Positions 10,903-54,958 of a stretch of DNA of 64,000 nucleotides are shown here, one piece after another (the first letter of the stretch is position 1; each line of letters begins with the position of its first letter). The stretch lies in the NCBI GenBank assembly GCA_021153325.1, contig JAGKTQ010000002.1, forward strand, positions 22,774 to 86,773. The letters are read 5' to 3'. The DNA comes from Lachnospiraceae bacterium (GTDB taxonomy: Bacteria; Bacillota; Clostridia; Lachnospirales; Lachnospiraceae). The position numbers and the translations under genes are program-made. Under the pieces are notes generated by a model, which saw only the letters and a list, made by a program, of their open reading frames with translations, searched no databases and had not been told where the DNA came from.

Positions 10903-10921
10903 CCATTGTAGGAGTGGGGAA

Positions 10922-36900: not shown

Positions 36901-37143
36901 CTGGAGCTTATCAGTAAGATTCAGACGATGCGTAAAGAGTCTGAAGAGAACTTACAGGTAACAGACCACATTAAAGTATCTGTAAGCGGAAATGACAAAA
37001 TTGCATCCATTATGGATACAAATAAAGAAGCGATCGCAGGAAAAGTACTTGCAGATGTGATGACAGCAGGCGATAGTTTCAAATACGCTAAAGAATGGAA
37101 TGTAAACGGAGAAAACGTAACAATTTCCATTGAAAAAGCATAA
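33961..37143 (+). CDS. ileS: Isoleucine--tRNA ligase, type 2 (eukaryote-like) form. I place the start at ATG 33961, downstream of the T-box terminator, not at 33862
   Basis: 1060 aa with FYDGPPTANGKPHIGHVLT (HIGH), GWDTHGLPVE and KMSKSKGN (KMSKS). Type-2 features are the GWDTHGLP block and the long C-terminal extension lacking the type-1 zinc-finger tail. The track start at 33862 would lie inside the leader. Confidence 0.93.
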   Translation: MYEKVSTNLNFVEREKQTLDFWNANDIFKKSMDSRKEGPTYTFYDGPPTANGKPHIGHVLTRVIKDMIPRYRTMKGYMVPRKAGWDTHGLPVELEVEKLLGLDGKEQIEEYGLDPFITKCKESVWKYKGMWEDFSGTVGFWADMDDPYVTYHDDYIESEWWALKEIWNKGLLYKGFKIVPYCPRCGTPLSSHEVAQGYKDVKERSAVARFKVKGEDAYILAWTTTPWTLPSNVALCVNPDETYAKVKAADGYTYYMAEALLDTVLGRLGKDENKETGEAAVAAYEVLEVYKGKDLEYKEYEPLFDCATEICERQHKKAYYVTCDNYVTLTDGTGVVHIAPAFGEDDANVGRKYDLPFVQLVDGKGEMTKETPYAGVFCKKADPMVLTDLDKKGLLFDAPKFEHSYPHCWRCDTPLIYYARESWFIKMTAVKDDLIRNNNTINWIPESIGKGRFGDWLENIQDWGISRNRYWGTPLNVWECECGHMHSVGSREELEKLSGNPEAKTVELHRPYIDAITFPCEKCGKTMHRVPEVIDCWFDSGAMPFAQHHYPFENKELFEKQFPAQFISEAVDQTRGWFYSLLAESTLLFNKAPYENVIVLGHVQDENGQKMSKSKGNAVDPFDALATYGADAIRWYFYINSAPWLPNRFHGKAVQEGQRKFMGTLWNTYAFFVLYANIDDFDASKYSLEYDKLTVMDKWLLSKLNSLITEVDNNLENYRIPEAARALESFVDDMSNWYVRRSRERFWAKGMEQDKINAYMTLYTALVTVCKVAAPMIPFMTEDIYQNLVRSIDKSAPESIHLCDYPVADAAFVDKKLEEDMDEVLKVVVMGRACRNAANIKNRQPIGNMFIKAPNALDDFYKAIIEEELNVKAVTFTDDVRDFTSYTFKPQLRTVGPKYGKQLGGIQKTLATLDGNAAMDELKASGALKFDIDGVEVALAEEDLLIEMSQKEGYVSEADNTVTVVLDTNLTEELIEEGFVLELISKIQTMRKESEENLQVTDHIKVSVSGNDKIASIMDTNKEAIAGKVLADVMTAGDSFKYAKEWNVNGENVTISIEKA

Positions 37144-37162
37144 AAATGGAGGAGAAACCTTT

Positions 37163-39640
37163 ATGGCAAAATTGAAGAAAAAGACTTTTGATAAGGAACT
37201 CTTTAAAAGAAGCGTGCTATATAATGTAAAGACTCTTTACCGTAAGACTTTAGAAGAAGCAAGTGATCAACAAATCTTTCAGGCTGTTTCCTATGCGATT
37301 AAAGATGCAATTATCGATCATTGGCTGGAAACTCAAAAAACATATGAAAAAAAAGACCCGAAAACAGTATATTATTTGTCAATGGAATTTCTGATGGGTC
37401 GTGCATTAGGCAATAATATGATCAACTTACAGGCTTATGACGAAGTGAAAAAAGCATTGGATGAGCTTGGAATAGATATTAACGTAGTAGAGGACCAGGA
37501 GCCGGATGCGGCTCTTGGAAATGGCGGTCTGGGACGATTGGCTGCCTGCTTCCTTGATTCTCTTGCAACACTTGGCTATCCGGCATATGGCTGCGGTATT
37601 CGTTATCGTTATGGTATGTTCAAACAGGAAATCCGTGATGGATATCAGGTGGAAGTACCGGATGTATGGCTGAACGAAGGCAATCCGTTTGAACTTCGCA
37701 GACCGGAATATGCAAAAGAAGTAAAATTTGGCGGTTATGTGAATGTTTACATTGATGAAAAAGGAAGAAGCAATTTTGTACAGGAAGGTTATCAATCTGT
37801 AAAGGCAGTCCCTTATGATATGCCAATCGTAGGTTATGGAAATGGTATCGTAAATACACTTCGTATCTGGGATGCACAGCCTGTAGAGTGCTTCCAGTTG
37901 GATTCCTTTGATAAAGGTGATTATCATAAGGCAGTAGAGCAGGAAAATCTTGCAAAAAATATTGTAGAAGTATTGTATCCGAATGATAATCATTATGCTG
38001 GAAAAGAATTACGTTTGAAACAGCAATATTTCTTCATTTCCGCATCGGTACAGGAAGCGGTAGCAAAATATATGCGTAACCACGACGATATTCGTAAGTT
38101 CCATGAGAAAGTAACTTTCCAGTTGAACGATACACATCCGACGGTAGCAATCGCAGAATTAATGCGTATTTTAATGGATGAGTACTATTTAACATGGGAT
38201 GAAGCATGGAATGTTACGACAAAAACATGCGCTTACACAAACCATACGATTATGGCTGAAGCATTGGAAAAATGGCCGATTGAGTTATTCTCAAGACTCC
38301 TTCCTAGAATTTATCAGATCGTAGAAGAGATCAACCGTCGTTTTGTAGATCAGATACAGCAACAGTATGGTGGAGACCAGAACTTGTGTCAGGAAAAGAT
38401 TCGCAAAATGGCAATCATTTATGACGGACAGGTTAAAATGGCACACCTTGCTATCGTAGCAGGTTATTCTGTAAATGGTGTAGCAAGACTGCATACGGAA
38501 ATTTTGAAAAAACAGGAATTAAAAGACTTTTATGAAATGATGCCTGAGAAATTTAACAACAAAACAAATGGTATCACACAGAGAAGATTCTTATTACATG
38601 GAAATCCGTTGCTTGCAAAATGGGTAACAGAACATGTTGGAAGCGACTGGATCACAGACTTGCCAAAGATCAACAAATTAAAAGTATACGCAGATGATGA
38701 AAAGGCACAACAGGAGTTCATGAACATCAAATATCGTAATAAAGTAAGACTTGCGGAATACATCAGAGAGCATAATGGAATCGAAGTGGATCCTCGTTCT
38801 ATTTTTGATGTACAGGTAAAACGTCTTCATGAATATAAACGTCAGTTGTTGAATATCCTGCATGTAATGTATTTGTACAATGAATTAAAGGAACATCCGG
38901 AAATGGACTTCTATCCAAGAACATTTATTTTCGGAGCAAAAGCGGCAGCAGGTTATCAGAATGCAAAACTTACTATTAAATTGATCAATTCAGTAGCAGA
39001 TGTGATCAATAACGATCCTTCCATTAATGGAAAGATCAAAGTAGTATTTATTGAAAACTACCGCGTTTCTAATGCAGAAATGATCTTTGCGGCAGCAGAT
39101 GTTTCCGAACAGATTTCTACAGCAAGTAAAGAGGCTTCTGGTACAGGAAACATGAAATTCATGTTAAATGGTGCACTGACTCTTGGAACAATGGATGGTG
39201 CGAATGTAGAAATCGTAGAAGAAGTTGGTCAGGAAAATGCATTTATTTTTGGATTAAGCTCAGATGAAGTCATTCAGTATGAGAACTATGGCGGATACAA
39301 TCCGATGGAAATTTTCAACAATGACCCGGATGTAAGAAAGGTATTAATGCAGTTGATCAACGGTACTTATGCACCGGATGATACAGAACTTTTCCGTCCG
39401 CTCTACAATTCACTGTTAAATACACAGAGTACATCAAAAGCAGATACTTACTTTATTTTGAAAGATTTCAAATCTTATGCAGAAGCACAAAGAAAAGTGG
39501 AAGCTGCTTACAAAGATGAAGCCGGTTGGGCAAGAAGTGCTATTTTGAATGTAGCATGCTCAGGTAAATTTACTTCAGATAGAACTATTCAGCAATACGT
39601 TGATGAAATTTGGCATTTGGATAAAGTAGTATTGGATTAA
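37163..39640 (+). CDS. glgP: Glycogen/maltodextrin phosphorylase. Start at ATG 37163 with RBS GGAGGAG
   Basis: About 825 aa. It has the PLP-lysine region EASGTGNMKFMLNGALTLGTMDGANVE, plus LGNGGLGRLAACFLDS and NDTHP. Confidence 0.95.
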   Translation: MAKLKKKTFDKELFKRSVLYNVKTLYRKTLEEASDQQIFQAVSYAIKDAIIDHWLETQKTYEKKDPKTVYYLSMEFLMGRALGNNMINLQAYDEVKKALDELGIDINVVEDQEPDAALGNGGLGRLAACFLDSLATLGYPAYGCGIRYRYGMFKQEIRDGYQVEVPDVWLNEGNPFELRRPEYAKEVKFGGYVNVYIDEKGRSNFVQEGYQSVKAVPYDMPIVGYGNGIVNTLRIWDAQPVECFQLDSFDKGDYHKAVEQENLAKNIVEVLYPNDNHYAGKELRLKQQYFFISASVQEAVAKYMRNHDDIRKFHEKVTFQLNDTHPTVAIAELMRILMDEYYLTWDEAWNVTTKTCAYTNHTIMAEALEKWPIELFSRLLPRIYQIVEEINRRFVDQIQQQYGGDQNLCQEKIRKMAIIYDGQVKMAHLAIVAGYSVNGVARLHTEILKKQELKDFYEMMPEKFNNKTNGITQRRFLLHGNPLLAKWVTEHVGSDWITDLPKINKLKVYADDEKAQQEFMNIKYRNKVRLAEYIREHNGIEVDPRSIFDVQVKRLHEYKRQLLNILHVMYLYNELKEHPEMDFYPRTFIFGAKAAAGYQNAKLTIKLINSVADVINNDPSINGKIKVVFIENYRVSNAEMIFAAADVSEQISTASKEASGTGNMKFMLNGALTLGTMDGANVEIVEEVGQENAFIFGLSSDEVIQYENYGGYNPMEIFNNDPDVRKVLMQLINGTYAPDDTELFRPLYNSLLNTQSTSKADTYFILKDFKSYAEAQRKVEAAYKDEAGWARSAILNVACSGKFTSDRTIQQYVDEIWHLDKVVLD

Positions 39641-39646
39641 TCGCAA

Positions 39647-39711
39647 GGAAGTAAATCGCCTTTGCGCCGGAGAAGCAATCTTTCGGGGCAGGGCAGTTTA
39701 CTTCTTTTTTT
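39647..39711 (+). terminator. Probable terminator after glgP (long-loop hairpin plus T7 run)
   Basis: GAAGTAAAT (39648-39656) pairs with GTTTACTTC (39696-39704), followed by TTTTTTT. The loop has further GC pairing. Confidence 0.5.
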
Positions 39712-39730
39712 GTGAAATGAGGAGGGAAAA

Positions 39731-41170
39731 ATGCTTTTTTCCAGTACAATATTTTTGTTTTTATTTTTACCCATTGTAATTTTGCTCTATTTTCTTGCAA
39801 AAGAGAAATACCGCAATATCATTCTTTTATTTGCGAGCCTTTATTTTTACGCATATGGTGAGCCGGAATTTATTTATATATTGCTCATATCTATTGCGTT
39901 AAATTACCTTTTTGCACTTGGAATCGAAAAGGTAGAAAGTAGAGAGAAGTTGCGAAAAGCAGTATTGGTCGTTGCGATTGTTGTGAATGTTGCGGTGCTT
40001 TTTGTATGCAAATATTTGAATTTTACGATCACGATCATTGACGCACTGTTTGGAGATATCTTACAGGTATTGCCGATCAGGCTGCCTATTGGAATTTCTT
40101 TTTATACATTCCAGGCAATTTCGTATTTGATTGATGTTTATAGAAAAGAAGTGAAAGCGCAGAAAAATCCAATTAATCTGGCACTTTATATATCCTTCTT
40201 CCCGCAGCTTATTGCCGGTCCGATCGTGCGGTACAAGACAATGGCAGAGGCATTAGAGAATCGAAAAGAGAGTTGGAATGACATTACTTATGGCGTAAGA
40301 AGATTTTTGATCGGATTGGGCAAGAAAATTATTTTAGCCAACAATTTAAGTCTGATAGCGGAATATGCTTTTGGATTTGATAATTATGGAAATCTGCCAG
40401 TAGTGACTGCATGGCTTGGCGCGATCAGTTTTTCTTTACAGATCTATTTTGACTTTTCAGGTTATTCTGATATGGCAATTGGTCTGGGAAGAATTTTCGG
40501 ATTCCATTTTGAAGAAAACTTTCACTATCCTTACGCAGCAAAAAATATTACGGACTTCTGGCGAAGATGGCATATTTCTTTGAGTGCCTGGTTTCGGGAT
40601 TATGTATACATTCCGTTAGGCGGTTCCAGAGTAAGTAAAAAAAGACACATATGGAATATGTTCGTAGTTTGGTGTATTACCGGAATATGGCATGGCGCAG
40701 CGTGGAATTTTGTAGCTTGGGGACTTTGCTATTTCTTCTTACTTGTTTTGGAAAAATATGTGTTCCATCCAGAAAAACTGAAAAATGTTTTTGGTAAGCT
40801 CATCTATAGAATAGGTACACTGTTGGCAGTGAATTTCCTTTGGGTATTTTTTAATGCCACAGCAGGATATGGTATGAGTGCTTTGCGTCGTGGAGCAGGG
40901 TACTGTCTGTCAATGATCGGTTGTAATGAGAATCCATTTTTCTCATCTGAAATATTATTTTACGTGCAGGAATATGGATGGTTTCTTGTGGCAGCTGTAT
41001 TAGCATCTGCCCCGATTCTGCCGAAGTTAAAAGAGTTATGCAGTAAACATAAGGTGATACATGGCATTTGGGAAGTACTTGCCTGTGCCGGACTTGCAGT
41101 AGTATTTTTGTACGCGGTTGCAAATCTGGTCATGGGAGCTCACAATCCATTTATTTATTTTAACTTTTAA
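39731..41170 (+). CDS. MBOAT-family membrane-bound O-acyltransferase (AlgI/DltB/PatA-like)
   Basis: 479-aa polytopic protein with the MBOAT catalytic-His block FWRRWHISLSAWFRDYVYIPLGGSR. Confidence 0.9.
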   Translation: MLFSSTIFLFLFLPIVILLYFLAKEKYRNIILLFASLYFYAYGEPEFIYILLISIALNYLFALGIEKVESREKLRKAVLVVAIVVNVAVLFVCKYLNFTITIIDALFGDILQVLPIRLPIGISFYTFQAISYLIDVYRKEVKAQKNPINLALYISFFPQLIAGPIVRYKTMAEALENRKESWNDITYGVRRFLIGLGKKIILANNLSLIAEYAFGFDNYGNLPVVTAWLGAISFSLQIYFDFSGYSDMAIGLGRIFGFHFEENFHYPYAAKNITDFWRRWHISLSAWFRDYVYIPLGGSRVSKKRHIWNMFVVWCITGIWHGAAWNFVAWGLCYFFLLVLEKYVFHPEKLKNVFGKLIYRIGTLLAVNFLWVFFNATAGYGMSALRRGAGYCLSMIGCNENPFFSSEILFYVQEYGWFLVAAVLASAPILPKLKELCSKHKVIHGIWEVLACAGLAVVFLYAVANLVMGAHNPFIYFNF

Positions 41171-41196
41171 ATAGAAAGAGGCAGGAGGACTATTTT

Positions 41197-42351
41197 ATGA
41201 AATTGTTTTCAGGAAAAAAACCGGATCTTGCAAAGCTGCCGGAAAATATTTTGGCTGTTGCTTTCTTTCTGTTTCTCATTTTGACAGGATATTACAGTCT
41301 GAAAAATTACTGGGATGTGCGCGTTTCAGGCGTTACAGAAACAGCAGATGGCTTTTCGGTAGAAAATGACTTTGAATCCAATTTTAATATTTTACTTTGG
41401 CATGAAGATAAATATGTAGAATATTATGGATTGGCTGCAAAGCTGCTTGGACAACCGGAATTGAATGAAGTAGTAAAATTAAAAAACGGTTACCTGAGCG
41501 GAGTAGAAGAACTTGTACCGGAAGAGAATCTGAAAAGAAATGCAGATGATCTATTAGCTTTAAAGCAGTATTTGGAAAGCCGTGGAAGCAGTCTGTTGTA
41601 TGTGCAGACTCCATTCAAAATCAGCAAATTTGATGATCAATTGCCGGCAGGAATTGCAGATTTCAGCAATCAGAATATAGATACTTTTATGAAGTATCTG
41701 GCTGAAAATGGGATTGCGACTATTGATATCCGGCAGACAATGTATGAAGAGGGTATGGATCAGTATGATTACTTTTTCCGGACAGATCATCACTGGACAC
41801 CGGAAGCAGGATTTTATGCTTATGGGAAAATTGCAGATTATGTAGAGGAAAACTTAGGGATTCCGGTGGATGAGCAAGTAAAAAATCTGGAAAACTATCA
41901 AATAGATAACTACGAGGACTGGCATTTGGGAACGAATGGACAGAGAACCGGAATCTATTATGGTGGAATTGATGATTTTCATTTGATCTCTCCCGCATTT
42001 GATACACAGCTTATCAATATGGATACGCAGGCAACTGGAAGTTATCATGAGATTTTGATCGAAGATGCCGTATTAAAAGAAGAGAGCCGTGCTGTTTATG
42101 ACATTGCTTACGGTAATTCTATCGGACATTATTTTCATAATCCGAACGCGGCTAATGATGCAAGGGTGCTTGTAGTCAGTGACTCTATGGGCAAGGTAGT
42201 AGCCCCGTTTTTGATCTTGTCTTATCAGGATGTTTACACAACAGGTTATGATCTGACTATGGAAAAGATAGAAGAATTTGCACCAGATATTGTGATCTAT
42301 GTGACTTATCCTGCCAATATTGGTGGAGAAAGTTTTCATGTAGTACAGTAG
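41197..42351 (+). CDS. DHHW-motif protein (AlgX/AlgJ/PatB-like extracytoplasmic acyltransferase partner), N-terminally anchored
   Basis: Signal-anchor ILAVAFFLFLILTGYY, the eponymous FFRTDHHWTPEAGFYAY motif, and a position immediately downstream of the MBOAT gene. Confidence 0.8.
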   Translation: MKLFSGKKPDLAKLPENILAVAFFLFLILTGYYSLKNYWDVRVSGVTETADGFSVENDFESNFNILLWHEDKYVEYYGLAAKLLGQPELNEVVKLKNGYLSGVEELVPEENLKRNADDLLALKQYLESRGSSLLYVQTPFKISKFDDQLPAGIADFSNQNIDTFMKYLAENGIATIDIRQTMYEEGMDQYDYFFRTDHHWTPEAGFYAYGKIADYVEENLGIPVDEQVKNLENYQIDNYEDWHLGTNGQRTGIYYGGIDDFHLISPAFDTQLINMDTQATGSYHEILIEDAVLKEESRAVYDIAYGNSIGHYFHNPNAANDARVLVVSDSMGKVVAPFLILSYQDVYTTGYDLTMEKIEEFAPDIVIYVTYPANIGGESFHVVQ

Positions 42352-42462: not shown

Positions 42463-44751
42463 ATGATTCATTTATACGAAGGCGGAGCTTATCTTGTAAA
42501 CGGGACAGAACTGATTCCGGATAACAACGAAGCCATCAGCGCCGTAAAAAGCAAAACAGGTAAAGAAGTGACCAAAGAATCCGCTGCAAAAGAAACAATC
42601 GCATATGGAATTTTGGAAAATCATAATACATCCGGTAATATGGACAAGTTAAAGATCAAATTTGATAAGTTAACTTCTCATGATATTACTTTTGTTGGAA
42701 TTATACAGACAGCACGTGCATCAGGACTTGAGAAATTTCCAATCCCTTATGTACTTACAAACTGCCACAACTCCCTTTGTGCAGTAGGTGGTACTATCAA
42801 CGAAGATGACCACATGTTTGGACTTACTTGTGCAAAGAAATACGGCGGAGTTTATGTTCCACCTCATCAGGCGGTTATTCATCAGTTTGCAAGAGAAATG
42901 CTTGCAGGCGGTGGAAAGATGATCTTAGGTTCTGACTCCCATACACGTTATGGTGCTCTCGGTACTATGGCAATGGGCGAAGGTGGACCGGAGCTTGTAA
43001 AACAGCTTTTGAATCAGACTTATGACATTAATATGCCGGGTGTTGTTGCTGTTTACTTAAAAGGTGAACCAGTGAAAGGTGTAGGTCCTCAGGACGTTGC
43101 TCTTGCGATTATCGGAGCTGTATTTGGAAACGGTTATGTGAAAAATAAAGTTATGGAATTTGTTGGACCAGGCGTTGCATCTTTAAGTGCTGATTTCCGT
43201 ATTGGTATTGATGTAATGACAACGGAAACAACTTGTCTTTCTTCTATCTGGCAGACAGATGACAAGATCAAGGAATTTTATGATATTCATGCAAGAAGCG
43301 AAGAATACAAAGAATTAAATCCTGGCGAAGTTGCTTATTATGATGGTGTGATCGAAGTGGATTTAAGCAAGATCAAACCGATGATCGCTATGCCATTCCA
43401 CCCAAGCAACACTTATACGATTGAAGAATTAAATGCAAATTTAATGGATATTTTGGATGATGTAGAGAAACGTGCAGCAGTCAGCCTTGACGGAGCAGTA
43501 GACTACACATTAAAGAATAAAGTGAAAAACGGTAAATTCATAGTAGATCAGGGTATCATTGCGGGATGTGCTGGCGGCGGATTTGAAAACATCTGTGCCG
43601 CTGCTGACATTATGAAAGGAAGCTACATTGGCTGTGACGAATTTACGTTGAGCGTATATCCGGCTTCTACACCGATCTATATGGAATTAATGAAGAATGG
43701 CTGTGCAGCAACTCTCTTGGAGACTGGTGCGATCTTGAAGACAGCATTCTGTGGACCTTGCTTCGGTGCAGGCGATACTCCGGCTAACAATGCATTCAGT
43801 ATCCGTCACTCTACAAGAAACTTCCCGAACAGAGAAGGTTCTAAATTACAGAGTGGTCAGATTTCTTCTGTTGCTCTTATGGATGCACGTTCTATTGCAG
43901 CTACAGCAGCAAACAAGGGTGTGCTTACTCCGGCAACTGATTTTGATGGAGAAATTGGAAAATACAAATATCATTTTGATACAAATATTTATGCAAACCG
44001 TGTATTTGATTCTAAGGGTGTGGCAGATGAATCTGTAGAAATTCACTTTGGACCAAATATCAAAGACTGGCCGGTTATGGGAGCACTTCCAGAAAACATG
44101 GTACTTCGTGTTGTTTCTGAAATTCATGATCCGGTAACGACAACAGACGAATTGATCCCTTCAGGAGAGACTTCTTCTTATCGTTCCAATCCTTTGGGAC
44201 TTGCAGAGTTTACGCTTTCCAGAAAAGATCCGAACTACGTTCCACTTGCAAAGGATATGCAGAAGGCACAGACAGCTGTTATGAACGGAGAATGTCCGAT
44301 TGAAGCGAAACCGGAATTAAAAGAAGTTATGGAAGTGATCAACAAAGAATATCCAGAGGTAGGAAAAGGAAATGTAGGCTTTGGTTCTACTATTTTTGCA
44401 GTAAAACCGGGTGATGGTTCTGCAAGAGAGCAGGCTGCTTCCTGCCAGAAAGTATTAGGTGGATGGGCAAATATTGCGAATGAGTATGCTACCAAGAGAT
44501 ATCGTTCCAACCTGATCAACTGGGGTATGCTTCCATTCCTGATTGAAGAAGGAGAACTGCCATTTAAGAATAAAGATTATTTATTCATTCCAAATATCAA
44601 AAAGGCAGTAGAAGAAAAAGCTGAAGTCATTAAAGCTTATACCGTAAGCGAGAGTGGACTCAAAGAGTTCAGCTTAAAACTTGGTGAACTGACGGATGAA
44701 GAACGTCAGATTATCTTAAAAGGTTGTCTGATCAATTACAATAGAGTGTAA
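42463..44751 (+). CDS. Aconitase-family [4Fe-4S] hydratase (aconitate hydratase-like, 762 aa)
   Basis: Aconitase-family substrate-site motif GSDSHTRYG and Fe-S cluster Cys motifs IAGCAGGG and [10 protein letters not shown]. The C-terminal swivel domain contains [15 protein letters not shown]. Confidence 0.8.
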
Positions 44752-44766
44752 AATAACCCATAAAGT

Positions 44767-44811
44767 AAGGCTTGCCATTCTAAATTTTAGGATGACAGCC
44801 TTATTTTTTTT
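44767..44811 (+). terminator. Rho-independent terminator after the hydratase gene
   Basis: AAGGCT...CATTCTAAA/TTTAGGATG...AGCCTT hairpin followed by ATTTTTTTT. Confidence 0.75.
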
Positions 44812-44823
44812 CATGAAACTTCT

Positions 44824-44850
44824 TAGAAAAATAGAAAATCATGCCGATAA
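44824..44850 (+). promoter_or_regulatory. Sigma-28 (SigD/FliA)-type promoter upstream of the flagellin relic
   Basis: TAGA (44824-44827), N15, GCCGATAA (44843-44850), compared with the consensus TAAA-N15-GCCGATAA. Confidence 0.6.
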
Positions 44851-44879
44851 ATAATAGAAGAGTTTTTCAAGGAAGAAAA

Positions 44880-46624
44880 ATGCGGATGTGACAGAAAAAT
44901 TGTCTTCTGGGTACCGGATCAATCGTGCTGGGGATGATGCAGCAGGTCTATCCATCTCGGAGAAGATGCGGAGACAGATTCGAGGACTGACACAGGCTTC
45001 GACCAATTCATTGGATGGTATTTCGATGGCACAGTCTGCCGAGGGAGCTATGCAGGAAATTCATGAGATGTTGCAGCGTAGCAATGTATTGGCGGTAAAA
45101 GCAGCAAATGGGACTTATTCGGATTTAGAGCGTGCAATGATAGATGATGAGTTGTAGCAAATGAAAAAGGCGATTGATGAGACTGCATGGAATACGGTAT
45201 TTAATGACATCAATCTTTTCCCACAAAATGGAGTCTCGCCTTATGCAGCCATGAGCAGTCAGGTTTATCATTATGAAATTAAGTACCATTTGTCAGATGG
45301 TGTGATCGAGATAGGCAGCAGCAATGCGGATACAACGGATGTAGACCAGACAGGCAGTACGATTTCGAGCGGAAGTGTGTTAGCAGATCACATTGCCAAT
45401 GAATTGTTGCCAAATGCGATCAGTCAGATATTAGAGGCATTTCCTTCTTTAAAGACAGCGACCGGAAGTGATACGATCGATATGGCATTGGATCTGTCTG
45501 TGATTGATGGTCCTGGCAGTACGTTAGCTTATGCACAATACTCTTTTTATACAACAAGTGGCAGCCGACCGATCAGTATGTTGATCAAGGTTGACAGTGC
45601 TGACTTTGATGATGAGGACACAACAAGCAGCGGTGCGAATGCGGAAATGTTGGAATCGACCATTGCACATGAATTGATGCATACGGTAATGCAATATAAT
45701 CTGACGGATGGCATGAGTGGAAGAGCGGGAGATGAGTTCCCGGATTGGTTTGTCGAGGGAACTGCACAATTAGCTGGTGGTGGTTTCCCTACTGGATGGA
45801 ATAATTATTTAAGCTATTATGCAGGAAAATTGAGCGATGAAACGGATACCAGTCGAGATACGGATATTGCCAATTATTTGAAACAATTTACGGTAGACAA
45901 CAGACCATATGGACATGGATATCTGGCAGCAGCTTATATTGGATATCTTGCAAATGGTGGTGGAGATGTAACAGCAGAAAACATTGCCAGTGGTATGGAT
46001 AAAGTATTTGCTGATCTGATAGGCGGAGCGAGCTTTGCCGAGGCACTTATGAATAATACTGGACTGACAGAAAGTGATATTGATAATTTATTCGCTACAG
46101 GAGATAGTGATCTGGTGGCATTTGTAAGAAAGCTTTCTTATGCATCCATTCAGCAGTTTAGAATTGATCCTACTAAGGTGAATATAGATTTATCTTCCAG
46201 CTCTGGCGGCACAGGAGGAACGAATGGAGTAGATTCTGTTTGGATACAGACTGGAACCGATGCAGGAGTCGGTATGTCCATCAATCTGTATAAGATGGAC
46301 TCAGAAGCACTTGGACTTACAAGTACGAGTTTAAGGACAATGGCTTCTGCCGGAAATGCGATTAATGAAGTAAAACTAGCAATGGAAGGTGTCAGTAAAG
46401 TAAGAAGTTACTATGGAGCGATACAGAATCGTTTAGAGCATACGATCGCCAATCTGAATAATGTAATTGAAAACACGACTGCAGCTGAGTCTGCTATAAG
46501 AGATACGGATATGGCAAAAGAGATGGTCACATATTCTAATATGCAGATTTTGGAACAGGCAGGAATCTCGATGCTCTCACAGGCAAATCGTCAATCAGAA
46601 TTTGTATTAAATCTTTTAAGTTAA
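44880..46624 (+). pseudogene. Disrupted flagellin with an HExxH metallopeptidase insert in the variable region (proteolytic-flagellin/flagellinolysin-like)
   Basis: ATG CGG ATG TGA at 44880 is out of frame with the flagellin frame that begins at 44888 ([38 protein letters not shown]). The first approx. 25 codons of a normal flagellin are missing. An in-frame TAG at 45155-45157 splits the N-domain (...IDDEL*QMKKAIDETAWNTVFN). The C-terminal flagellin domain is intact (IQNRLEHTIANLNN...ILEQAGISMLSQANRQSEFVLNLLS). HELMH is at 45668-45682, with WFVEGTAQ 25 aa downstream. Confidence 0.8.
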
Positions 46625-46655
46625 GAAAAAGTGTATGGAGGCATAAGGGAAACAA

Positions 46656-47033
46656 ATGGGTGTTGTTGAGAAAATAAGTTGCAGTATATGTGGACAGACT
46701 TGGGAATGTCAAACAGGCTGTGGTCTGCAACATGGCAGAATAGAAGCTGTTGCCGAATTGTTTGATAAAAAGACAGCAGTGCAGATCAAAACAAACAGAT
46801 CACATGATCCATTTCCCTTATATGACTTTGCCTATCATTTAGCAAGCTGTGATCCATGCAAATGTGTGCTAAGCGTTCCGGTTCTTACTATGATGGAAAG
46901 TAATCTTCAATATATAGGAACTTGCCCACAATGTGGAGAAAAAGTGAAATGCATGGAGGATGTGGAAAATACTTTTTGCCCTTGGTGTCATGAAAAGGGG
47001 CTTCACAGAGAAAAAATCGGACACTGGGATTAA
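46656..47033 (+). CDS. Cys-rich hypothetical protein (125 aa) with several CxxC pairs, predicted zinc-ribbon(s)
   Basis: CSIC, CQTGC, CDPCKC, CPQC and CPWC motifs. The ORF lies 31 nt after the flagellin stop with no terminator between them. Confidence 0.5.
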   Translation: MGVVEKISCSICGQTWECQTGCGLQHGRIEAVAELFDKKTAVQIKTNRSHDPFPLYDFAYHLASCDPCKCVLSVPVLTMMESNLQYIGTCPQCGEKVKCMEDVENTFCPWCHEKGLHREKIGHWD

Positions 47034-47062
47034 AAGATAAAATTTCAAAAAGAATAGAAAAT

Positions 47063-48007: not shown

Positions 48008-48073
48008 GCAGACGGATTTCGGCAAGACTATTTCTATAACTTAAAGATGGAGGAAAGGAGCAGGGTTATAGAA

Positions 48074-48973
48074 ATGAAAAGAAGAAATAGAATGCGGGGC
48101 GGCGCAGGAAAAGAGCGCGCTATTATGTTGGCGGCTTCCGTTTTCGTCTTAGGTGCGTTGACACTGACAGGCGTATATGTAAAAGAAAATAATGCAGAGA
48201 AGAGTGATGACGGATATTCCGTTGATTTAAGCTCGCTGGAAAAAGATAATACGGTGCAGGAAAATGCACAGGCAATTGAAGACAATCAGGATTCCTTGAG
48301 CGTACAAAATCCAGCTGCAGAATATGAGTTGGACTTAGAAGCAGTATTGGAAGAAGGCGAAATTGAGAATACCGATCTGGCAAAGAAGGAAGAGGAAAAG
48401 CAGAATGAAAAGGAAGAGGAAAAAACTTCTGAAGCGAATGAGACTTCTAAGGCGAAGGATGCAGAAAATCCTGGTCAGAATGAAGATAAGGAAAAGAGTA
48501 CGACGCAGTCTGAAGACAGTGCGTCGGTTTCTACAACAACTTGGAAAGCGCTGGAATTTACGGAAGAGAAAGGTCTTGTATGGCCTACAGTAGGTGAAAT
48601 CCTGATCAATTATAGTATGGATAAAACCGTGTATTTCCCGACACTGGCACAGTATAAATACAATCCGGCACTTATCATATCGGCAGCAGAAGGAAAAACT
48701 ATCGTGGCAGCAGCAGATGCACAGATCGTTGAAATTTTTAATGATGGTGAAATCGGAAGTGCAGTGCGTATGGATTTAGGAAATGGATATGAATTGGTTT
48801 ATGGACAGCTGAAAGACATTCAAGTAAGCAAAGGGGCTTACGTGTCTGCCGGTGATGTAATAGGAACGGTAGCTGCACCTAGCAAATATTATAGTGTGGA
48901 AGGCAGTAACCTTTATGTGAAACTGACTAAAGATGGCACACCGATCAATCCACTGTCCTTATTGCCACAGTGA
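48074..48973 (+). CDS. Bitopic membrane protein with an acidic linker and a catalytically degenerate LytM (M23) domain; SpoIIQ-like. The track start at 48047 is probably the RBS region
   Basis: TM segment AIMLAASVFVLGALTLTGVYV. The M23 fold blocks are present, but all Zn ligands are replaced: YNPALIISAAEGKTIVAAADAQIV instead of HxGxD..., GQL instead of AHL, and GSNLYVKL instead of GPHLHFE. Confidence 0.6.
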   Translation: MKRRNRMRGGAGKERAIMLAASVFVLGALTLTGVYVKENNAEKSDDGYSVDLSSLEKDNTVQENAQAIEDNQDSLSVQNPAAEYELDLEAVLEEGEIENTDLAKKEEEKQNEKEEEKTSEANETSKAKDAENPGQNEDKEKSTTQSEDSASVSTTTWKALEFTEEKGLVWPTVGEILINYSMDKTVYFPTLAQYKYNPALIISAAEGKTIVAAADAQIVEIFNDGEIGSAVRMDLGNGYELVYGQLKDIQVSKGAYVSAGDVIGTVAAPSKYYSVEGSNLYVKLTKDGTPINPLSLLPQ

Positions 48974-49085
48974 CCGTTTAAAAGAAGTGAATTTTTCTAT
49001 GATAAGATGTCATATCAAAATACAAGTTTGTGCCAGAGAAGCGACACAAACTTGATTTTGTGTGGACAAAAAGATAGGAGCAGGT

Positions 49086-50252
49086 ATGAGTCGTATTTTT
49101 ATAAAGAACGGAAAGATCATGACGATGGCGGGGTATATTCATGAAGGTGGAAGTATATTATTGGAAGCAGGAAAAATACAGGCAGTTGGAAATATCCAGA
49201 TAGAGGAAAGTAAAGACGATCTGATAATACTGGATGCTAAAGGCGGCTGGGTCATGCCCGGGCTTATGGAAGCACATTGTCATATGGGAATTACGGAAGA
49301 GAAAAAAGGAACAGAGGGGGATGACTGCAATGAAAATGTGGAACCTATTACACCCTATCTTCGCGGGATAGATGCGATTAATCCTATGGATGCAGCCTTT
49401 GAGGACGCTGTACGCGCCGGTATTACAGCGGCAATGATAGGACCGGGAAGTGCTAACGTTGTGGGTGGGCAATTTGCGGTAGTAAAAACAAAGGGAAGAA
49501 AGATGGATGATTTGATCGTAAAAGCGCCGGCAGCCATGAAAGTTGCTTTTGGGGAAAATCCAAAGGTCAATTACAGTGGACAGAAAAAAATGCCCGTAAC
49601 GAGAATGGCAATTGCGGGGATGTTGCGAAGAGAATTGTTTGCGGCAAAGCAATATGCAAAAAAGAAGAAACATGCGGGAAGCGATTTTGAAGAGGATTTC
49701 CATTATGAGAGCTGGCTTCCGGTGTTAAATAAAGAAATTCCCATAAAAGCTCACGTACACCGGGTAGATGATATTTTTACGGCAATACGCATTGCAAAAG
49801 AATTTGATGTAAAGATGACACTGGATCATTGCAGCGAAGGGCATCTTATTGCAAAGGAAGTGGCAGAAAGCAAAATGCCCGCCATTGTAGGACCGGATTT
49901 TACGAGTCGCAACAAAATTGAAGTGCAAAATATGGCATTTAAAACGGCAGGAGTATTGCAAAAAGCAGGAGTACTTGTGGCGATTACTACAGATCATCCG
50001 GTGTCTATCATCAATTCCCTGCCGCTATGTGCAGGAATGGCAGTAAAGGCTGGGTTGCCCATGATGGAAGGATTAAAAGCCATTACGATCAATCCGGCAA
50101 GAATCTGTGGAGTGGATGACAGACTGGGCAGTTTAGAGGAAGGGAAGGATGCGGATGTGGTAATCTTTTCTGGAAATCCTATGGAAATTTTTACGCAAGT
50201 GTATTGTACGATCATAGACGGTGTCATAGTCTATCGTAAAGAGGGCTTTTAG
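49086..50252 (+). CDS. Metal-dependent amidohydrolase (imidazolonepropionase-related superfamily). Start at ATG 49086
   Basis: Beta-sandwich N-terminus IFIKNGKIMTM...GWVMPGLMEAHCHMGI with the HxH metal motif, and C-terminal GSLEEGKDADVVIF, typical of the family. Confidence 0.8.
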   Translation: MSRIFIKNGKIMTMAGYIHEGGSILLEAGKIQAVGNIQIEESKDDLIILDAKGGWVMPGLMEAHCHMGITEEKKGTEGDDCNENVEPITPYLRGIDAINPMDAAFEDAVRAGITAAMIGPGSANVVGGQFAVVKTKGRKMDDLIVKAPAAMKVAFGENPKVNYSGQKKMPVTRMAIAGMLRRELFAAKQYAKKKKHAGSDFEEDFHYESWLPVLNKEIPIKAHVHRVDDIFTAIRIAKEFDVKMTLDHCSEGHLIAKEVAESKMPAIVGPDFTSRNKIEVQNMAFKTAGVLQKAGVLVAITTDHPVSIINSLPLCAGMAVKAGLPMMEGLKAITINPARICGVDDRLGSLEEGKDADVVIFSGNPMEIFTQVYCTIIDGVIVYRKEGF

Positions 50253-50321
50253 TTTTCTTGAAAAAGAGGTATAATACAAAAGATTAGTGTCTGTATTTGG
50301 ACAAAGAAAGGGAATTGTTTT

Positions 50322-51671
50322 GTGAAACAAAAGGTGTTTGTAATTCTGTTATGTCTCATGCTCCTTTTGACCGGGTGTTCAGGAAAGGAAACCTATACGG
50401 TGCAGAATGCTTCTGGAATGGCAGAGGGCATGGAAACAGAAGCAGTCATAGATTATGTCGTTCCCCAAAGTTTTCCGGGGATTTTAATAAATCAGGCAGG
50501 ATATGGTGTAGACAGTGCGAAAACTGCTATTTTCCGGGGAGAAAATTTGCCGGAAACTTTTTGTGTATATAATGCGGAAAATGGAAAGAAAGTGTATGAA
50601 GGCACGGTAGAGAGAAAAGGGTATGATGCTGTGACGGGCGAGCGGATTGCGTACGGAACTTTTTCTGATGTGACAATGCCTGGTGAGTATTATGTGGAAG
50701 CGGATATTGTAGGACGTTCCTATACATTTACGATCGGCAATCAGGTATATCGCAAGCTCCTTGAAGCAAATGTACAGCATCTTTATGAAGGACTGCAGGG
50801 GAAAACGACACTGACCGAAGAAGAGACAAAGGAAAGCAGCAAGGCACTTATGAATAGTTTACTAGCTTGTGAATTGCATGGAACAGCCTTTGATGATGAA
50901 ATGGGTATACCGGAAAGTGGAAATAATGTTCCCGATGTTATTGATGTTTTGTTTGTGCAGGTAAATCTTTTGATGCAGCAGAGTGAAGTTGTGCTGGCTT
51001 CTACAGATTGGGAAATGGTTTCCTATTATGCGGCGGCAATGGCAAAATTTAGTTATACATACAAAGAATATGACAGTGTATTTGCTACGTCCTGTTTGCA
51101 GCTTGCTGATATGGTGTGGAAATATATGGAGAAAAATGCAGACAGCATAGATGAAGATATGCGTTTTATGGTGGCAGCAGAATTGTATCGCGCCTCGGGT
51201 GCACAACGTTATCATACTTATATCAAACAATATGGTGCAGTAGAAGAACTGGAAAGCCGGGAAGCTATATATGGTGCAGTGACTTACGTTTCTACAAAAC
51301 AGTCTGTAGATATAGAACTATGTAATGTCTTTATGAAAGAGATCATGTCGGAAGCAGAAGACAGTGCAGCACGCTCCAAAGAGTCTTACTATCAGGTCTC
51401 TTTAAGTGAAAAACAGGATAATCATGAGGATATTATGTGGGACATGATCATGCTCACTATCGTTGACAAGGTAATTTCCAATCATGAGTATGCAACCGTC
51501 ATTGAAAACAATCTACATTATTTTTTAGGACGAAATCCTAAGGCAGTCAGTTTTGTAAATGGTGTTGGCGATTATAGCTGTACAGAGGAGAAACTGCAGT
51601 CTATCATGGATGGCGGTTTTGAAGAAAGTGCACTTCTCTTTATGCTGAGTGAAATAAACGATACAGTATAG
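50322..51671 (+). CDS. Lipoprotein with a GH9-type N-terminal Ig-like (CelD_N-like) domain and a truncated GH9-like (alpha/alpha)6 region lacking recognisable catalytic motifs
   Basis: Lipobox LLLTGC with a GTG start. The blocks ILINQAGYGVDSAKTAIF...FCVYNAENGKKVYEGTV...GTFSDVTMPGEYYVEADIVGRSYTFTIG match the Ig-like domain pattern. The blocks VPDVIDVLFVQVNLLMQQ, AAAMAKFSYTYKEYDSVFATSCLQLADMVWKY, AAELYRASGAQRY and HYFLGRNPKAVSFVNGVG parallel GH9 helices. I find no DAGD or HHR/NE motifs. Confidence 0.55.
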   Translation: MKQKVFVILLCLMLLLTGCSGKETYTVQNASGMAEGMETEAVIDYVVPQSFPGILINQAGYGVDSAKTAIFRGENLPETFCVYNAENGKKVYEGTVERKGYDAVTGERIAYGTFSDVTMPGEYYVEADIVGRSYTFTIGNQVYRKLLEANVQHLYEGLQGKTTLTEEETKESSKALMNSLLACELHGTAFDDEMGIPESGNNVPDVIDVLFVQVNLLMQQSEVVLASTDWEMVSYYAAAMAKFSYTYKEYDSVFATSCLQLADMVWKYMEKNADSIDEDMRFMVAAELYRASGAQRYHTYIKQYGAVEELESREAIYGAVTYVSTKQSVDIELCNVFMKEIMSEAEDSAARSKESYYQVSLSEKQDNHEDIMWDMIMLTIVDKVISNHEYATVIENNLHYFLGRNPKAVSFVNGVGDYSCTEEKLQSIMDGGFEESALLFMLSEINDTV

Positions 51672-51768
51672 AGCATTTTTTACAATGTGAAAAGCATAAA
51701 TTTATATTCTGTAGAAGAATAAGTGCTGATATAATGAAAATAATAAGCGGTTATATAGGAGGTTTCAT

Positions 51769-52794
51769 ATGAAGATCGTAGTATTAGCGGGTGGAATTAG
51801 TACAGAAAGAGATGTTTCCCTGATTTCAGGAACTATGATATATAGAGCGTTAAAAGAAAAAGGACATCAAGTCATTTTGTTGGATGTGTTTTTAGGTTAC
51901 GCAGGAAATACAGCAGATATTTTTGAAAGAGACGAAGATTGGGCAAAAGAAATTGAAGGCATTAAAGAAGAAAACCCAGATATTGAAAAAGTAAAAGCGA
52001 TGCGTCCGGATGGGGATAAGATTTTCTTTGGACCAAACGTTATTTCCATTTGCCAGAGTGCAGATGTAGTATTCATGGCACTTCACGGAGAAAACGGAGA
52101 GAACGGAAAAATTCAGGCATGCTTTGATCTGATGGGAATTAAATATACGGGAACGGATTATGTCAGCTCCGCTCTTTGTATGGATAAAGGTCTTACGAAA
52201 GAGCTGTTTGAACTGCACGGTGTTCCAACTCCAAAAGGAATCTGTTTAAAGAAAGGACAGCAAGATAAACGGGAAGTACCGCTTCCTTGTGTGGTAAAAG
52301 CATGCTGTGGCGGTTCCAGTGTAGGGGTGTGCATTGCTTCTAACGAGAGTGAATACGAAAAGGCAAAAGAGGAAGCCTTCCGTTATGACAATGAAGTTGT
52401 TATTGAACAATACATTAAAGGACGGGAATTTTCTGTAGGTGTAATAGAAGGAAGGGCATTGCCGATTATTGAAATTGCGCCGATCAGCGGTTTTTACGAT
52501 TATAAAAATAAATATCAGGCAGGCAGTACGATCGAAACCTGTCCGGCAGAGCTTAGTGAAGAGAAAACAAAGGAAATGCAAAAATATGCAGAAGATGCTT
52601 TCCGTGTACTTCGATTAAAAAATTACGCCCGCATGGATTTCATGATGAGCGAAAAAGGAGAGCTTTACTGTTTAGAGGCAAATACACTGCCAGGAATGAC
52701 ACCGACCTCCCTTCTCCCACAAGAAGCGCAGGCAGAAGGTACTTCTTATGGAGATTTGTGCGAAGAACTTATTCGGATTTCATTGGAGGGATAA
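51769..52794 (+). CDS. ddl: D-alanine--D-alanine ligase
   Basis: MKIVVLAGGISTERDVSLISG N-terminus, ATP-grasp core, FYDYKNKYQAGS omega-loop region, C-terminal EANTLPGMTPTSLLP. Confidence 0.93.
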   Translation: MKIVVLAGGISTERDVSLISGTMIYRALKEKGHQVILLDVFLGYAGNTADIFERDEDWAKEIEGIKEENPDIEKVKAMRPDGDKIFFGPNVISICQSADVVFMALHGENGENGKIQACFDLMGIKYTGTDYVSSALCMDKGLTKELFELHGVPTPKGICLKKGQQDKREVPLPCVVKACCGGSSVGVCIASNESEYEKAKEEAFRYDNEVVIEQYIKGREFSVGVIEGRALPIIEIAPISGFYDYKNKYQAGSTIETCPAELSEEKTKEMQKYAEDAFRVLRLKNYARMDFMMSEKGELYCLEANTLPGMTPTSLLPQEAQAEGTSYGDLCEELIRISLEG

Positions 52795-52795
52795 T

Positions 52796-54190
52796 ATGAA
52801 AAATATGACATTGGTGTCGGTTGCAGAAAGCTGTCATGGCATTTTGCATCAGGCAGAAGCCGATTTAACAAAATGTGCAGCTGGTGTAGTACTGGATTCC
52901 AGAAAAGTAGAAAAGGATTTCCTTTTTATTGCCACAAAAGGAGAGCGTGTGGATGGACACGACTTCATTCCACAGGTTATGGAAAAAGGGGCTCTTGCCG
53001 TTGTATGTGAAAAAGCGCCGGAGGATGAAACGATACCTTATATTTTGGTCAAAGATTCTTTTCAGGCTTTGAAAGATATTGCGGAATATTACAGACAGCA
53101 GCTGTCAGTAAAAGTAGTTGGGATTACGGGAAGTGTAGGAAAGACAAGTACAAAAGAATTTATTGCAGGTGTGCTTTCTGAAAAGTACAATGTGCTGAAG
53201 ACCGAAGGAAATTTCAACAATGAAGTTGGACTTCCGCTTACTGTACTGCGGATAAAAGAAGAGCACGAGGTTGCTGTATTGGAAATGGGAATCAGTGATT
53301 TTGGTGAGATGCACCGCTTAAGTAAAATCGCAAAACCTGATATTTGTGTCATGACTAATATTGGACAGTGTCATTTGGAATTTCTTGGAACAAGAGACGG
53401 TATTCTGAAAGCCAAGTCGGAAATTTTTGATTTTGCAAAGGAGGATGCGTCAGTTTTTGTAAATGGGGATGATGATAAACTCATTACTGTTCCGGAAAGA
53501 AACGGAAAGATGCCTGTACGTTTTGGCTTAAATGAAGAAAATGATGTATATGCTACTGAAGTTGAAAACAGAGGTCTGTTTGGAAGCGAAGCAAACATTC
53601 ATATAAAAAAGACAGATGGAACAGAGGATTGCTTCCAAGTATCCGTTCCACTTCCGGGTGGACATATGGTATACAATGCGTTGGCAGCCGCCGGTGTGGC
53701 AGTGGAATTAGGACTTAGCACGGAGCAGATTCAGGCAGGTATTTCCACTGTAAAACCGGTGGGCGGAAGAAGCAATATTATCCGTGCTGAAAAATATACG
53801 CTGATCGACGATTGTTACAATGCAAATCCAGTGTCTATGGAAGCCGCTATTGATCTTTTGGGCATGGCACTTACGAGAAAAGTTGCTGTATTAGGCGATA
53901 TGTTTGAACTTGGCGAAAACTCCGACGCGTTGCATGAGCGGGTTGGAAAATATGCAGTGGAGCATGGTGTAGATGTGTTGATCTGTGTAGGTGCAAATTC
54001 AAAATTCATGTATGAAGCTGCCGGAAAGAAAAAAGAAGAAATGCATGGTGTAACAGAACTTTATTATTTTGCTGCAAAAGCGGAATTGGAATCGGCGATA
54101 GAAAGCATTTTGAACGAAAAAGATACTGTACTGATCAAAGCATCTCATGGAATGGGATTTGATACGGTCGTAAAAAAGCTGTCAATATGA
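52796..54190 (+). CDS. murF: UDP-N-acetylmuramoyl-tripeptide--D-alanyl-D-alanine ligase. Start at ATG 52796, 1 nt after the ddl stop
   Basis: Mur-ligase P-loop GITGSVGKTSTKEFI and DCYNANPVSMEAAI. ddl-murF is the conserved gene pair. Confidence 0.92.
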   Translation: MKNMTLVSVAESCHGILHQAEADLTKCAAGVVLDSRKVEKDFLFIATKGERVDGHDFIPQVMEKGALAVVCEKAPEDETIPYILVKDSFQALKDIAEYYRQQLSVKVVGITGSVGKTSTKEFIAGVLSEKYNVLKTEGNFNNEVGLPLTVLRIKEEHEVAVLEMGISDFGEMHRLSKIAKPDICVMTNIGQCHLEFLGTRDGILKAKSEIFDFAKEDASVFVNGDDDKLITVPERNGKMPVRFGLNEENDVYATEVENRGLFGSEANIHIKKTDGTEDCFQVSVPLPGGHMVYNALAAAGVAVELGLSTEQIQAGISTVKPVGGRSNIIRAEKYTLIDDCYNANPVSMEAAIDLLGMALTRKVAVLGDMFELGENSDALHERVGKYAVEHGVDVLICVGANSKFMYEAAGKKKEEMHGVTELYYFAAKAELESAIESILNEKDTVLIKASHGMGFDTVVKKLSI

Positions 54191-54200
54191 CAGCTTTTTT
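54173..54200. terminator. Bidirectional terminator between the convergent murF and plsC genes; it overlaps the murF stop
   Basis: AAAAAGCTGTCA-ATA-TGACAGCTTTTTT, a palindromic hairpin flanked by an A-run and a T-run. Confidence 0.75.
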
Positions 54201-54217
54201 AGTTTCTTAATTCCACT

Positions 54218-54958
54218 TTATGAATAATATTTTTCTTTATTTCTAAAATAGGCTTCTGAAATAATTTTCTGCGTGTAGGCTCCTACAAATTTCTGGTCTT
54301 CCTTGTCTAAATCTTTCATATAAAATGGCTTGCAGTATTCCACAACCACATGCGCTTTTTTGATTTTAGGAAAATGATCTTCTAAAATAGAGGAACTGTT
54401 GTTGATGCTGATCGGAACGACCGGACAGCCACTTTTTTGAGCAAGCTTGAAACTGCCTTCATGGAATGGAAGAAAAGTATCCGCCTGTTTGTTTCTTGTT
54501 CCTTCTGGGAAAATACAGATAGAAATGCCGGATTTTATTTTTTCAATTCCAGTTAAAATGGTCTTCATACCCTTCTTAATATCATCTCTGTCCAAGAATA
54601 AACAGTGCAGATTTCTCATCCACTGATTCAGAAGAGGTATCTTTTCGATTTCGACCTTGGAAACATAACCGGTTGGTCTTGGAACTCTCACATATGTAAT
54701 GAGAATGTCGAAAATACTGCGATGGTTACCCACATATAAAACAGCCGTATCCTTTGGTACATTTTCTTCGCCGATCACAGTGACCTTTGTACCTGCTATA
54801 AAAAGAACACAGCGAAATGCCCAGTTTACAATGGCAAGCGAACTTTTATTTTTGGCATCCATATTAAATTTTCCAATGAGCCATTCTATAAAAAATAAAG
54901 GAATGGAACAAATAAGAAATATGACAACAAATACTACAGCTAAAATAAGTCGAATCAT
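54218..54958 (-). CDS. plsC: 1-acyl-sn-glycerol-3-phosphate acyltransferase
   Basis: N-terminal TM, HX4D acyltransferase motif VGNHRSIFDI, and FPEGTRN block. Confidence 0.88.
   Translation of the reverse strand: MIRLILAVVFVVIFLICSIPLFFIEWLIGKFNMDAKNKSSLAIVNWAFRCVLFIAGTKVTVIGEENVPKDTAVLYVGNHRSIFDILITYVRVPRPTGYVSKVEIEKIPLLNQWMRNLHCLFLDRDDIKKGMKTILTGIEKIKSGISICIFPEGTRNKQADTFLPFHEGSFKLAQKSGCPVVPISINNSSSILEDHFPKIKKAHVVVEYCKPFYMKDLDKEDQKFVGAYTQKIISEAYFRNKEKYYS

Follow-up and report, generated by a model that had tools for sequence, protein, structure and literature searches.

The subject of this analysis is a locus at 44824-46624 of a 64,000-nucleotide (nt) stretch of Lachnospiraceae DNA (the window, in which all coordinates count from the first letter). 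It holds two open reading frames (ORFs), ORF1 (44888-45157, GTG start, 89 amino acids (aa)) and ORF2 (45161-46624, 487 aa), which share one frame and are separated by TAG-CAA, exactly as placed in a preliminary description of this DNA. Read together, they are, as far as the sequence can tell, an allele of a known family, flagellinolysin, i.e., flagellins in which a gluzincin zinc metalloprotease forms the hypervariable region exposed at the surface. The neighbours of the two ORFs encode an aconitase-family protein, a 125-aa Cys-rich ORF, and a SpoIID-domain protein; these flanks, too, are as given in the earlier account.

Both ends of the protein are recognised as flagellin. ORF1 matches Pfam Flagellin_N (E 1.2e-28), over profile positions 25-112 of 139 only, and ORF2 matches Pfam Flagellin_C (E 1.5e-24), while sequence matches to flagellins in the PDB reach E 5.6e-28 for the C-terminal D1/D0 region. 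The NCBIfam model NF033876 ('flagellinolysin') is matched by ORF2 (E 4.3e-51) and, across its full 384 positions, by the protein obtained when the TAG is read through (E 4.9e-54). The read-through protein scores 184.2 bits on this model, under the curated equivalog cut-off of 205 bits; the allele of a sister species, described below, scores 202.7 bits, and intact relatives 196.8-220.9 bits. The score below the cut-off goes with a deletion of 25 aa in the window copy, and the homology itself is not in doubt. Full-length homologues number in the hundreds at 57-69% identity, some of them named flagellinolysin by NCBI, and relatives in a large protein database number in the thousands. The best 120 relatives are nearly all full-length (613-657 aa, 54-65% identity by BLASTP), include several NCBI-named flagellinolysins, and come entirely from metagenome-assembled genomes of Lachnospiraceae or Eubacterium.

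The insert carries the signature of the family. Across 20 diverse inserts that were aligned, the residues that never vary are H-E-x-x-H, M, P-x-W-F-x-E-G-x-A-Q, G, W, Y, G, Y, and L-A, and the window copy retains them all. The stretch WFVEGTAQLAGGG (45746-45784) contains a Glu located exactly 25 residues past the second His of the HELMH motif, so that a position check upholds the gluzincin arrangement proposed earlier. The preliminary description had also allowed for a fortuitous HExxH; the insert aligns with flagellinolysin inserts, which speaks against that possibility, and its identification of a flagellin with a protease insert stands on the NF033876 match, the complete set of catalytic motifs, and the full-length homologues. 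The AlphaFold2 (AF2) model of the protein has a mean predicted local distance difference test score (pLDDT) of 72.8 overall, with values of 75-95 over most of the metallopeptidase domain, and superposes on flagellin cores. No relation to the M9 collagenases was recovered by the profile of the 20 inserts against PDB sequences (best E 2.2) or by Pfam (no Peptidase_M9 match). Foldseek, run with the whole AF2 model and not with the insert domain by itself, returned flagellin cores alone among its best 50 matches.

Alleles, lesions, and selection

The alleles of the window species were compared in a haplotype table of 11 sequences over 44700-47040, all of the same locus and recovered by exact-sequence look-ups. 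One of them, contig L085 (ERZ27302875), matches the window at 99.7-99.8% identity along 21.7 kb and carries an uninterrupted gene of 603 aa (P0123), with CAG at codon 45155 and the 5' end present. The intact copy that the preliminary description suggested looking for at orthologous loci, thus, exists, and its reading of the window gene as a recently inactivated relic is strengthened by finding an uninterrupted allele in so close a strain. L085 holds two copies of the sequence AGAAAAATG, one in the 5' untranslated region (5'UTR) and one at codons 21-23, as compared with a single copy in the window and nine other haplotypes. Relative to L085, the window is missing exactly 93 nt between these 9-nt direct repeats, a deletion found in 10 of the 11 haplotypes and removing the Shine-Dalgarno sequence GAGGAAAT, the ATG, and the first 22 codons, i.e., those for MVIQHNLLAGNANRQLNINVE(K). 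The earlier statement that the start is wrecked, with about 25 N-terminal codons absent, holds in this form, but the 'ATG CGG ATG TGA' offered as the remnant of the start is not the old start: the alignment with L085 shows it to be the retained codons AAT GCG GAT GTG ACA (N-A-D-V-T) read out of frame.

The T at 45155 that creates the TAG is present in 9 of the 11 haplotypes and, without exception, on the background of the 93-nt deletion. L085 and L001 have C at this position (CAG, Gln), and Gln is nearly invariant in the corresponding column of 60 homologues. An allele with the deletion and CAG is represented by L001, and by P0122 on three contigs. In L093, and in no other haplotype, one more nucleotide is missing, at 45760 within the zinc-ligand motif WFVEG. 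A third lesion of the window gene, beyond those noticed earlier, lies at about 46147, where 75 nt are deleted in frame from a linker (KDGAGSV...LGNTAA) that is nearly invariant across the family; it is shared by all 11 haplotypes, the otherwise intact L085 included. Because the lesions are nested across the 11 haplotypes, the order of events reads as the 75-nt deletion (fixed in the species), the 93-nt deletion, the TAG, and finally the frameshift.

A sister species, with 83% nucleotide identity in the flagellin gene and 73-90% in the neighbouring genes, is represented by contigs L002/L003 and L092. L092 encodes an intact flagellinolysin of 625 aa. In L002, which is 99.73% identical to L092, AAA is reduced to AA at the equivalent of about window position 45003, leaving a product of 94 aa, and this is a null allele independent of the lesions in the window species. 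A programmed frameshift was considered for the sister allele and rejected: a -1 shift would be needed, no slippery heptamer is present at the site GCTTCGACAACTC, and the only difference from the intact allele is AA in place of AAA.

The ratio of nonsynonymous to synonymous substitution rates (dN/dS), calculated between the window and L002 by the Nei-Gojobori method, is 0.067 for the flagellinolysin at a dS of 0.95, within the range of the neighbouring genes (0.01-0.23). It is low in each part of the gene (0.05 in the N-terminal D1 remnant, 0.06 in the protease insert, 0.094 in the C-terminal D1/D0), and the first 37 codons, upstream of the frameshift of the sister species, contain a single amino-acid difference. 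These values indicate that the whole protein, filament helices included, has been under purifying selection for nearly the whole period since the two species diverged. As null and uninterrupted strains differ by only 0.2-0.4%, this low ratio between species makes the inactivations very recent. Selection and recency together suggest that the lineage of the window would possess a flagellar apparatus now, or would have done so until recently. In a relative-rate test, the window species shows slightly more changes (21-27 vs 13-17, chi-square 0.4-4.3), and at sites invariant in the outgroups seven changes fall in the window species against one in the sister species. This weak excess, suggestive and not decisive, would fit a degree of relaxed constraint following the 75-nt deletion.

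Control sequences upstream of the gene have been kept as well. The promoter of SigD/FliA type, TAGA-N15-GCCGATAA, was correctly picked out in the preliminary description; its -10 box and a block of the leader are preserved in the sister species amid diverged intergenic DNA, and 8 of 11 orthologous flagellinolysin genes have (G)CCGATA(A/T) or a near match no more than 160 nt upstream. In the whole window, with both strands counted, GCCGATAA occurs twice. In its intact state, the flagellinolysin gene would have been transcribed from this sigma-28-type promoter. The leader of the intact allele (L085, 9957-10000) contains two hairpins. The hairpin with the AAGGAA loop folds in the intact allele, the sister species, and the window alike, in a block that is 100% conserved between the species; the second holds the Shine-Dalgarno sequence, which overlaps a second GGA in the intact allele, and it was lost with the 93-nt deletion.

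Features of the flagellinolysin locus and its downstream ORF, in window coordinates
Feature	Position	Strand	Basis
SigD/FliA (sigma-28)-type promoter, TAGA-N15-GCCGATAA; use of sigma-28 predicted	44824-44850	+	Read from the sequence
5'UTR hairpin GUUUUUC-AAGGAA-GAAAAAU with GGA in the loop, retained; putative likeness to the first CsrA site of a hag-type leader	44862-44881	+	RNA folds
Junction of the 93-nt deletion, with the one remaining copy of the 9-nt repeat AGAAAAATG	44874-44882	+	Comparison with L085
ORF1, N-terminal D1 remnant of flagellin, 89 codons from a fortuitous GTG, without D0 helix and export-signal region	44888-45154	+	Pfam Flagellin_N, homologue alignment
Premature stop TAG (CAG, Gln, in intact and deletion-only alleles)	45155-45157	+	Haplotype table
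ORF2, end of N-terminal D1, protease insert, C-terminal D1/D0	45161-46624	+	Pfam Flagellin_C, NF033876
Hypervariable-region insert, gluzincin-type metallopeptidase domain	45212-46234	+	Alignment of 20 diverse inserts, AF2 model
HELMH, zinc-binding and catalytic motif	45668-45682	+	H, E, and H invariant in 20/20 inserts and 60/60 close homologues
EGTA, third zinc ligand Glu and 'basement' Ala at Glu+3	45755-45766	+	Spacing, motif invariance
Junction of the 75-nt in-frame deletion, 25 conserved residues gone (KDGAGSVIAASLGTGGTDILGNTAA in the sister species)	46141-46148	+	Alignments, 11/11 haplotypes
C-terminal D1/D0 flagellin helices	46235-46621	+	Pfam Flagellin_C, PDB flagellin matches, dN/dS 0.094 against the sister species
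125-aa Cys-rich ORF with four CxxC pairs, intact	46656-47033	+	Downstream of flagellinolysin genes

Explanations for the broken gene

The reading favoured here, with a probability of roughly 0.9, is that 44824-46624 is a dead, recently inactivated allele of flagellinolysin. The ancestral gene would have been transcribed from the sigma-28-type promoter and translated from a hag-like leader, and its product would have been exported by the flagellar type III system via the N-terminal D0 and built into the filament, where it would have displayed the protease. In this strain, the gene can no longer do so. The species-fixed deletion in the linker preceded the other two lesions of the window gene, and may already have weakened the protein. 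A slippage-type deletion between the two AGAAAAATG repeats then removed the ribosome-binding site, the start codon, and the 22 D0/export codons, and the later change from CAG to TAG cuts any product started at the fortuitous GTG to 89 residues. After long purifying selection, the gene is in the course of being lost now, because its lesions are nested and polymorphic and the sister species has a frameshift allele of its own. On this reading, the catalytic motifs are still perfect only because too little time has passed for decay.

Several points weigh against this reading or limit its reach. A 487-aa product may be made from the ATG at 45161, 3 nt past the TAG, as far as its sequence goes. The haplotypes number only 11, each being the consensus of a metagenome assembly, which makes the allele frequencies rough, and the frameshift of L093 comes from a single contig of 2.4 kb. 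The 'intact' allele of L085 itself carries the 75-nt deletion, so that it may not be functional. Along 9375 nt, L002 and L003 show no difference and may share a sample, so that the sister frameshift counts as one independent observation. Finally, the GTDB representative genomes do not include the species, the best match among them being just 60% identical, so that a flagellar apparatus and fliA in this genome are at most presumed.

The first of these points opens the way to a different explanation, in which the locus encodes a repurposed protease that is no longer exported and whose translation would restart at ATG 45161 (or, in strains with CAG, begin at GTG 44888), acting in the cytoplasm or after release, with the lesions tolerated or even selected. 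All lesions but one fall in the N-terminal part, the catalytic residues and the family-invariant positions are intact, and the distance from the TAG to the next ATG has a geometry that permits termination-reinitiation. A long downstream ORF is left both by the sister lesion (554 aa, P0002) and by the deletion in the window species (578 aa, P0001), and a recombinant flagellinolysin reduced to its hypervariable region is reported to be active in vitro (PMC5595980). However, no Shine-Dalgarno sequence precedes ATG 45161, and GTG 44888 has only a weak one, at a distance of 12-13 nt. Nested and accumulating lesions are the pattern of neutral decay, and intact motifs are expected anyway among strains differing so little. 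The low dN/dS between the species holds just as much for the filament-forming C-terminal D1/D0 (0.09) and the 37 codons ahead of the sister frameshift, which fits a protein that served as a flagellin until recently and not a free protease. Lastly, one strain has its frameshift inside the zinc-ligand motif of the active site, which disfavours an internally initiated protease, ranked as the lesser possibility already in the preliminary description. A repurposed protease is, in view of all this, regarded as very unlikely.

Still less weight is given to two explanations in which the gene would not be broken at all. An assembly or sequencing artefact hiding an intact gene could draw on the uninterrupted allele found in one assembly (L085), from which a collapsed or chimeric assembly might in principle have come to differ. 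Nevertheless, the deletion and the TAG recur together in at least eight other samples (ERZ27303017, SRR9182607, SRR33263718, SRR33263705, SRR35689838, ERZ27303220, SRR33263716, and ERZ27302833), from different runs and two assembly pipelines (megahit-style k141 contigs and Logan), and with differing linked single-nucleotide polymorphisms; because of this recurrence, the lesions are not assembly errors, a reservation that the preliminary description had attached to both the TAG and the 5' deletion and that can now be dropped. The existence of the deletion-only CAG allele (L001 and P0122) speaks against an artefact in the same way. A habitat look-up of the sample accessions gave no literature match. 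Recoding or read-through of the TAG (e.g., by pyrrolysine or by stop reassignment), which would join ORF1 and ORF2 into one protein, fits a TAG that stands in frame with the frame open on both sides. In contrast, TAG ends 4 of the 31 ORFs of at least 250 aa in the window, at ends expected from homologues, and sibling strains have CAG at 45155, where Gln is the family consensus; even a read-through protein would come without ribosome-binding site, start codon, or export region. Artefact and recoding are both considered hardly credible, leaving a dead flagellinolysin allele as the preferred reading.

Neighbourhood and the Cys-rich partner ORF

The locus has the same synteny in both species, with an aconitase-like gene, the flagellinolysin gene, the 125-aa Cys-rich ORF, and spoIID; the full order in the sister species is aconitase-like gene, flagellinolysin, Cys-rich ORF, SPM-domain gene, spoIID, and M23 peptidase. 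The SPM-domain gene (400 aa), between the Cys-rich ORF and spoIID, is found in the sister species only and is missing in the window. Conversely, genes for an MBOAT protein (479 aa) and an ALGX/DHHW-like protein (384 aa), at 39731-42351 (+) between glycogen phosphorylase and the aconitase-like gene, are absent from that place in the sister species. It is true, as stated earlier, that no flagellar gene lies nearby, but this is no sign of decay, as the intact alleles of both species have these same non-flagellar neighbours. The Pfam scan of window ORFs, which took in the ATP synthase operon and genes for GlgC/D, Mfd, SpoVT, and a GGDEF-EAL protein, among others, turned up no flagellar or chemotaxis family, and the annotation of the remaining genes on L085/L094 shows none either. 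That annotation covers 33862-42351 and 48047-54958, with genes for IleRS, glycogen phosphorylase, MBOAT, ALGX, M23 peptidase, amidohydrolase, a glycoside hydrolase of family GH9, Ddl, Mur ligase, and an acyltransferase.

Relatives at 62-65% identity, by comparison, lie inside late flagellar clusters with FlgM, FlgN, FlgK, FlgL, FliW, CsrA, FlaG, FliD, and FliS. On contig L083 (7952-9949, 17255-19230), a flagellinolysin 62% identical to that of the window stands beside a second flagellin of 665 aa and two ordinary flagellins of 272 aa, with glycosyltransferases nearby. In the clade of L083, proteolytic flagellins, thus, coexist with non-proteolytic ones and could be individually dispensable.

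The Cys-rich ORF follows the flagellinolysin gene directly in 24 loci and is found in this position in none of 53 loci without a protease insert; L095 is a further locus with the pairing. It has no Pfam or NCBIfam family. A word-index search found only four homologous proteins, and an exhaustive profile search 404 representative clusters, nearly all of the 150 listed being stand-alone proteins of 120-133 aa. In this family, C9, C12, C108, C111, G23, W124, and D125 are invariant, and C65, C68, C90, and C93 nearly so. The AF2 model is very confident (pLDDT 95.6, predicted template modelling score 0.87), and a search with it gave no fold match in the PDB (best E 0.47). In every strain whose flagellinolysin is broken, the ORF itself remains intact; against the sister species it has a dN/dS of 0.18, and no Cys-rich partner is mentioned in the searchable text of the flagellinolysin papers. 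A tentative idea, judged on balance unlikely, is that of a two-gene module in which the Cys-rich ORF would encode a dedicated cytoplasmic partner (e.g., a chaperone or an inhibitor silencing the protease before export), the frequent and independent null alleles of the two sister species then reflecting selection against displaying a protease-flagellin and not neutral decay. The partner gene is a testable lead on how the cell deals with an active protease ahead of its export.

Elsewhere in the window, the sole gene found with a loose connection to motility control encodes a dCache-GGDEF-EAL protein, a cyclic-di-GMP signalling enzyme (10892-13174, +). Downstream of the ATP synthase operon, ORFs of 843 aa (8371-10902, +) and 128 aa (6701-7087, +) have no Pfam family at E 1e-4. 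The same holds for a giant ORF on the forward strand, which begins at 55184 and stays open beyond 64000, for more than 2938 codons to the end of the window (3485 aa on L085). Its signal-peptide-like N-terminus is followed by a T/S/E/Q-rich stretch, and it probably encodes a large secreted or cell-surface protein.

Comparison with known systems

Flagellinolysins have already been described and are named automatically by NCBI, so that a broken copy adds little by itself. The interest of the present locus lies in a clean snapshot of gene death, with four nested lesions, an uninterrupted allele still present, a parallel loss in the sister species, and a dN/dS of 0.067 that marks the gene as useful until a very short time ago. 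It bears on the dispensability or the cost of a protease-decorated flagellum for Lachnospiraceae of the gut or rumen, whose flagellins are prominent host antigens. A literature search on proteolytic flagellin in Lachnospiraceae gave no relevant match at the level of titles and abstracts.

The hag gene of Bacillus subtilis has a SigD promoter and a leader controlled by CsrA/FliW. The flagellinolysin locus appears similar in its TAAA-like -35 element, its GCCGATAA -10 box, its hairpin with an AAGGAA loop, and, in the intact allele, a second GGA at the Shine-Dalgarno sequence; moreover, fliW and csrA are present in the flagellar cluster beside an orthologue at 65% identity. Unlike in hag, the second putative CsrA site is deleted in the window.

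Flagellin and other flagellar pseudogenes are familiar from Shigella and Yersinia pestis, in lineages losing motility. The window locus seems to resemble these in having small disabling lesions in a late flagellar gene, a sequence otherwise well preserved, and different null alleles from strain to strain, and it differs in that its species still harbours an uninterrupted allele. As many Lachnospiraceae have several flagellin genes (e.g., on L083), it may be that only the proteolytic flagellin is dispensable.

Among flagellinolysins, that of Hylemonella gracilis is the second experimentally characterised member, as presented in the searched text of PMC7643111, which mentions neither a Cys-rich downstream partner nor pseudogenes. 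It shares the domain architecture and the catalytic motifs of the window copy and, unlike it, is intact and active, in a Gram-negative betaproteobacterium. The closest comparison is with FliA(H) of Clostridium haemolyticum (FlaMP), in which His233, His237, and Glu262, the third ligand, bind zinc, with Ala265 as the 'basement' (Eckhard et al. 2017, PMC5595980). That paper makes no mention of the Lachnospiraceae clade of the window, and stresses conservation of the family 'rather than loss through pseudogenization'. In FliA(H) as in the window, flagellin N- and C-terminal helical domains flank a gluzincin hypervariable region, and HExxH is followed by Glu at +25 and Ala three residues later. The window copy, unlike FliA(H), is a pseudogene, with no ribosome-binding site, start codon, or D0 N-terminus, interrupted by a TAG, and with 25 linker residues gone; in departure from the published account, loss of a flagellinolysin is seen here in progress.

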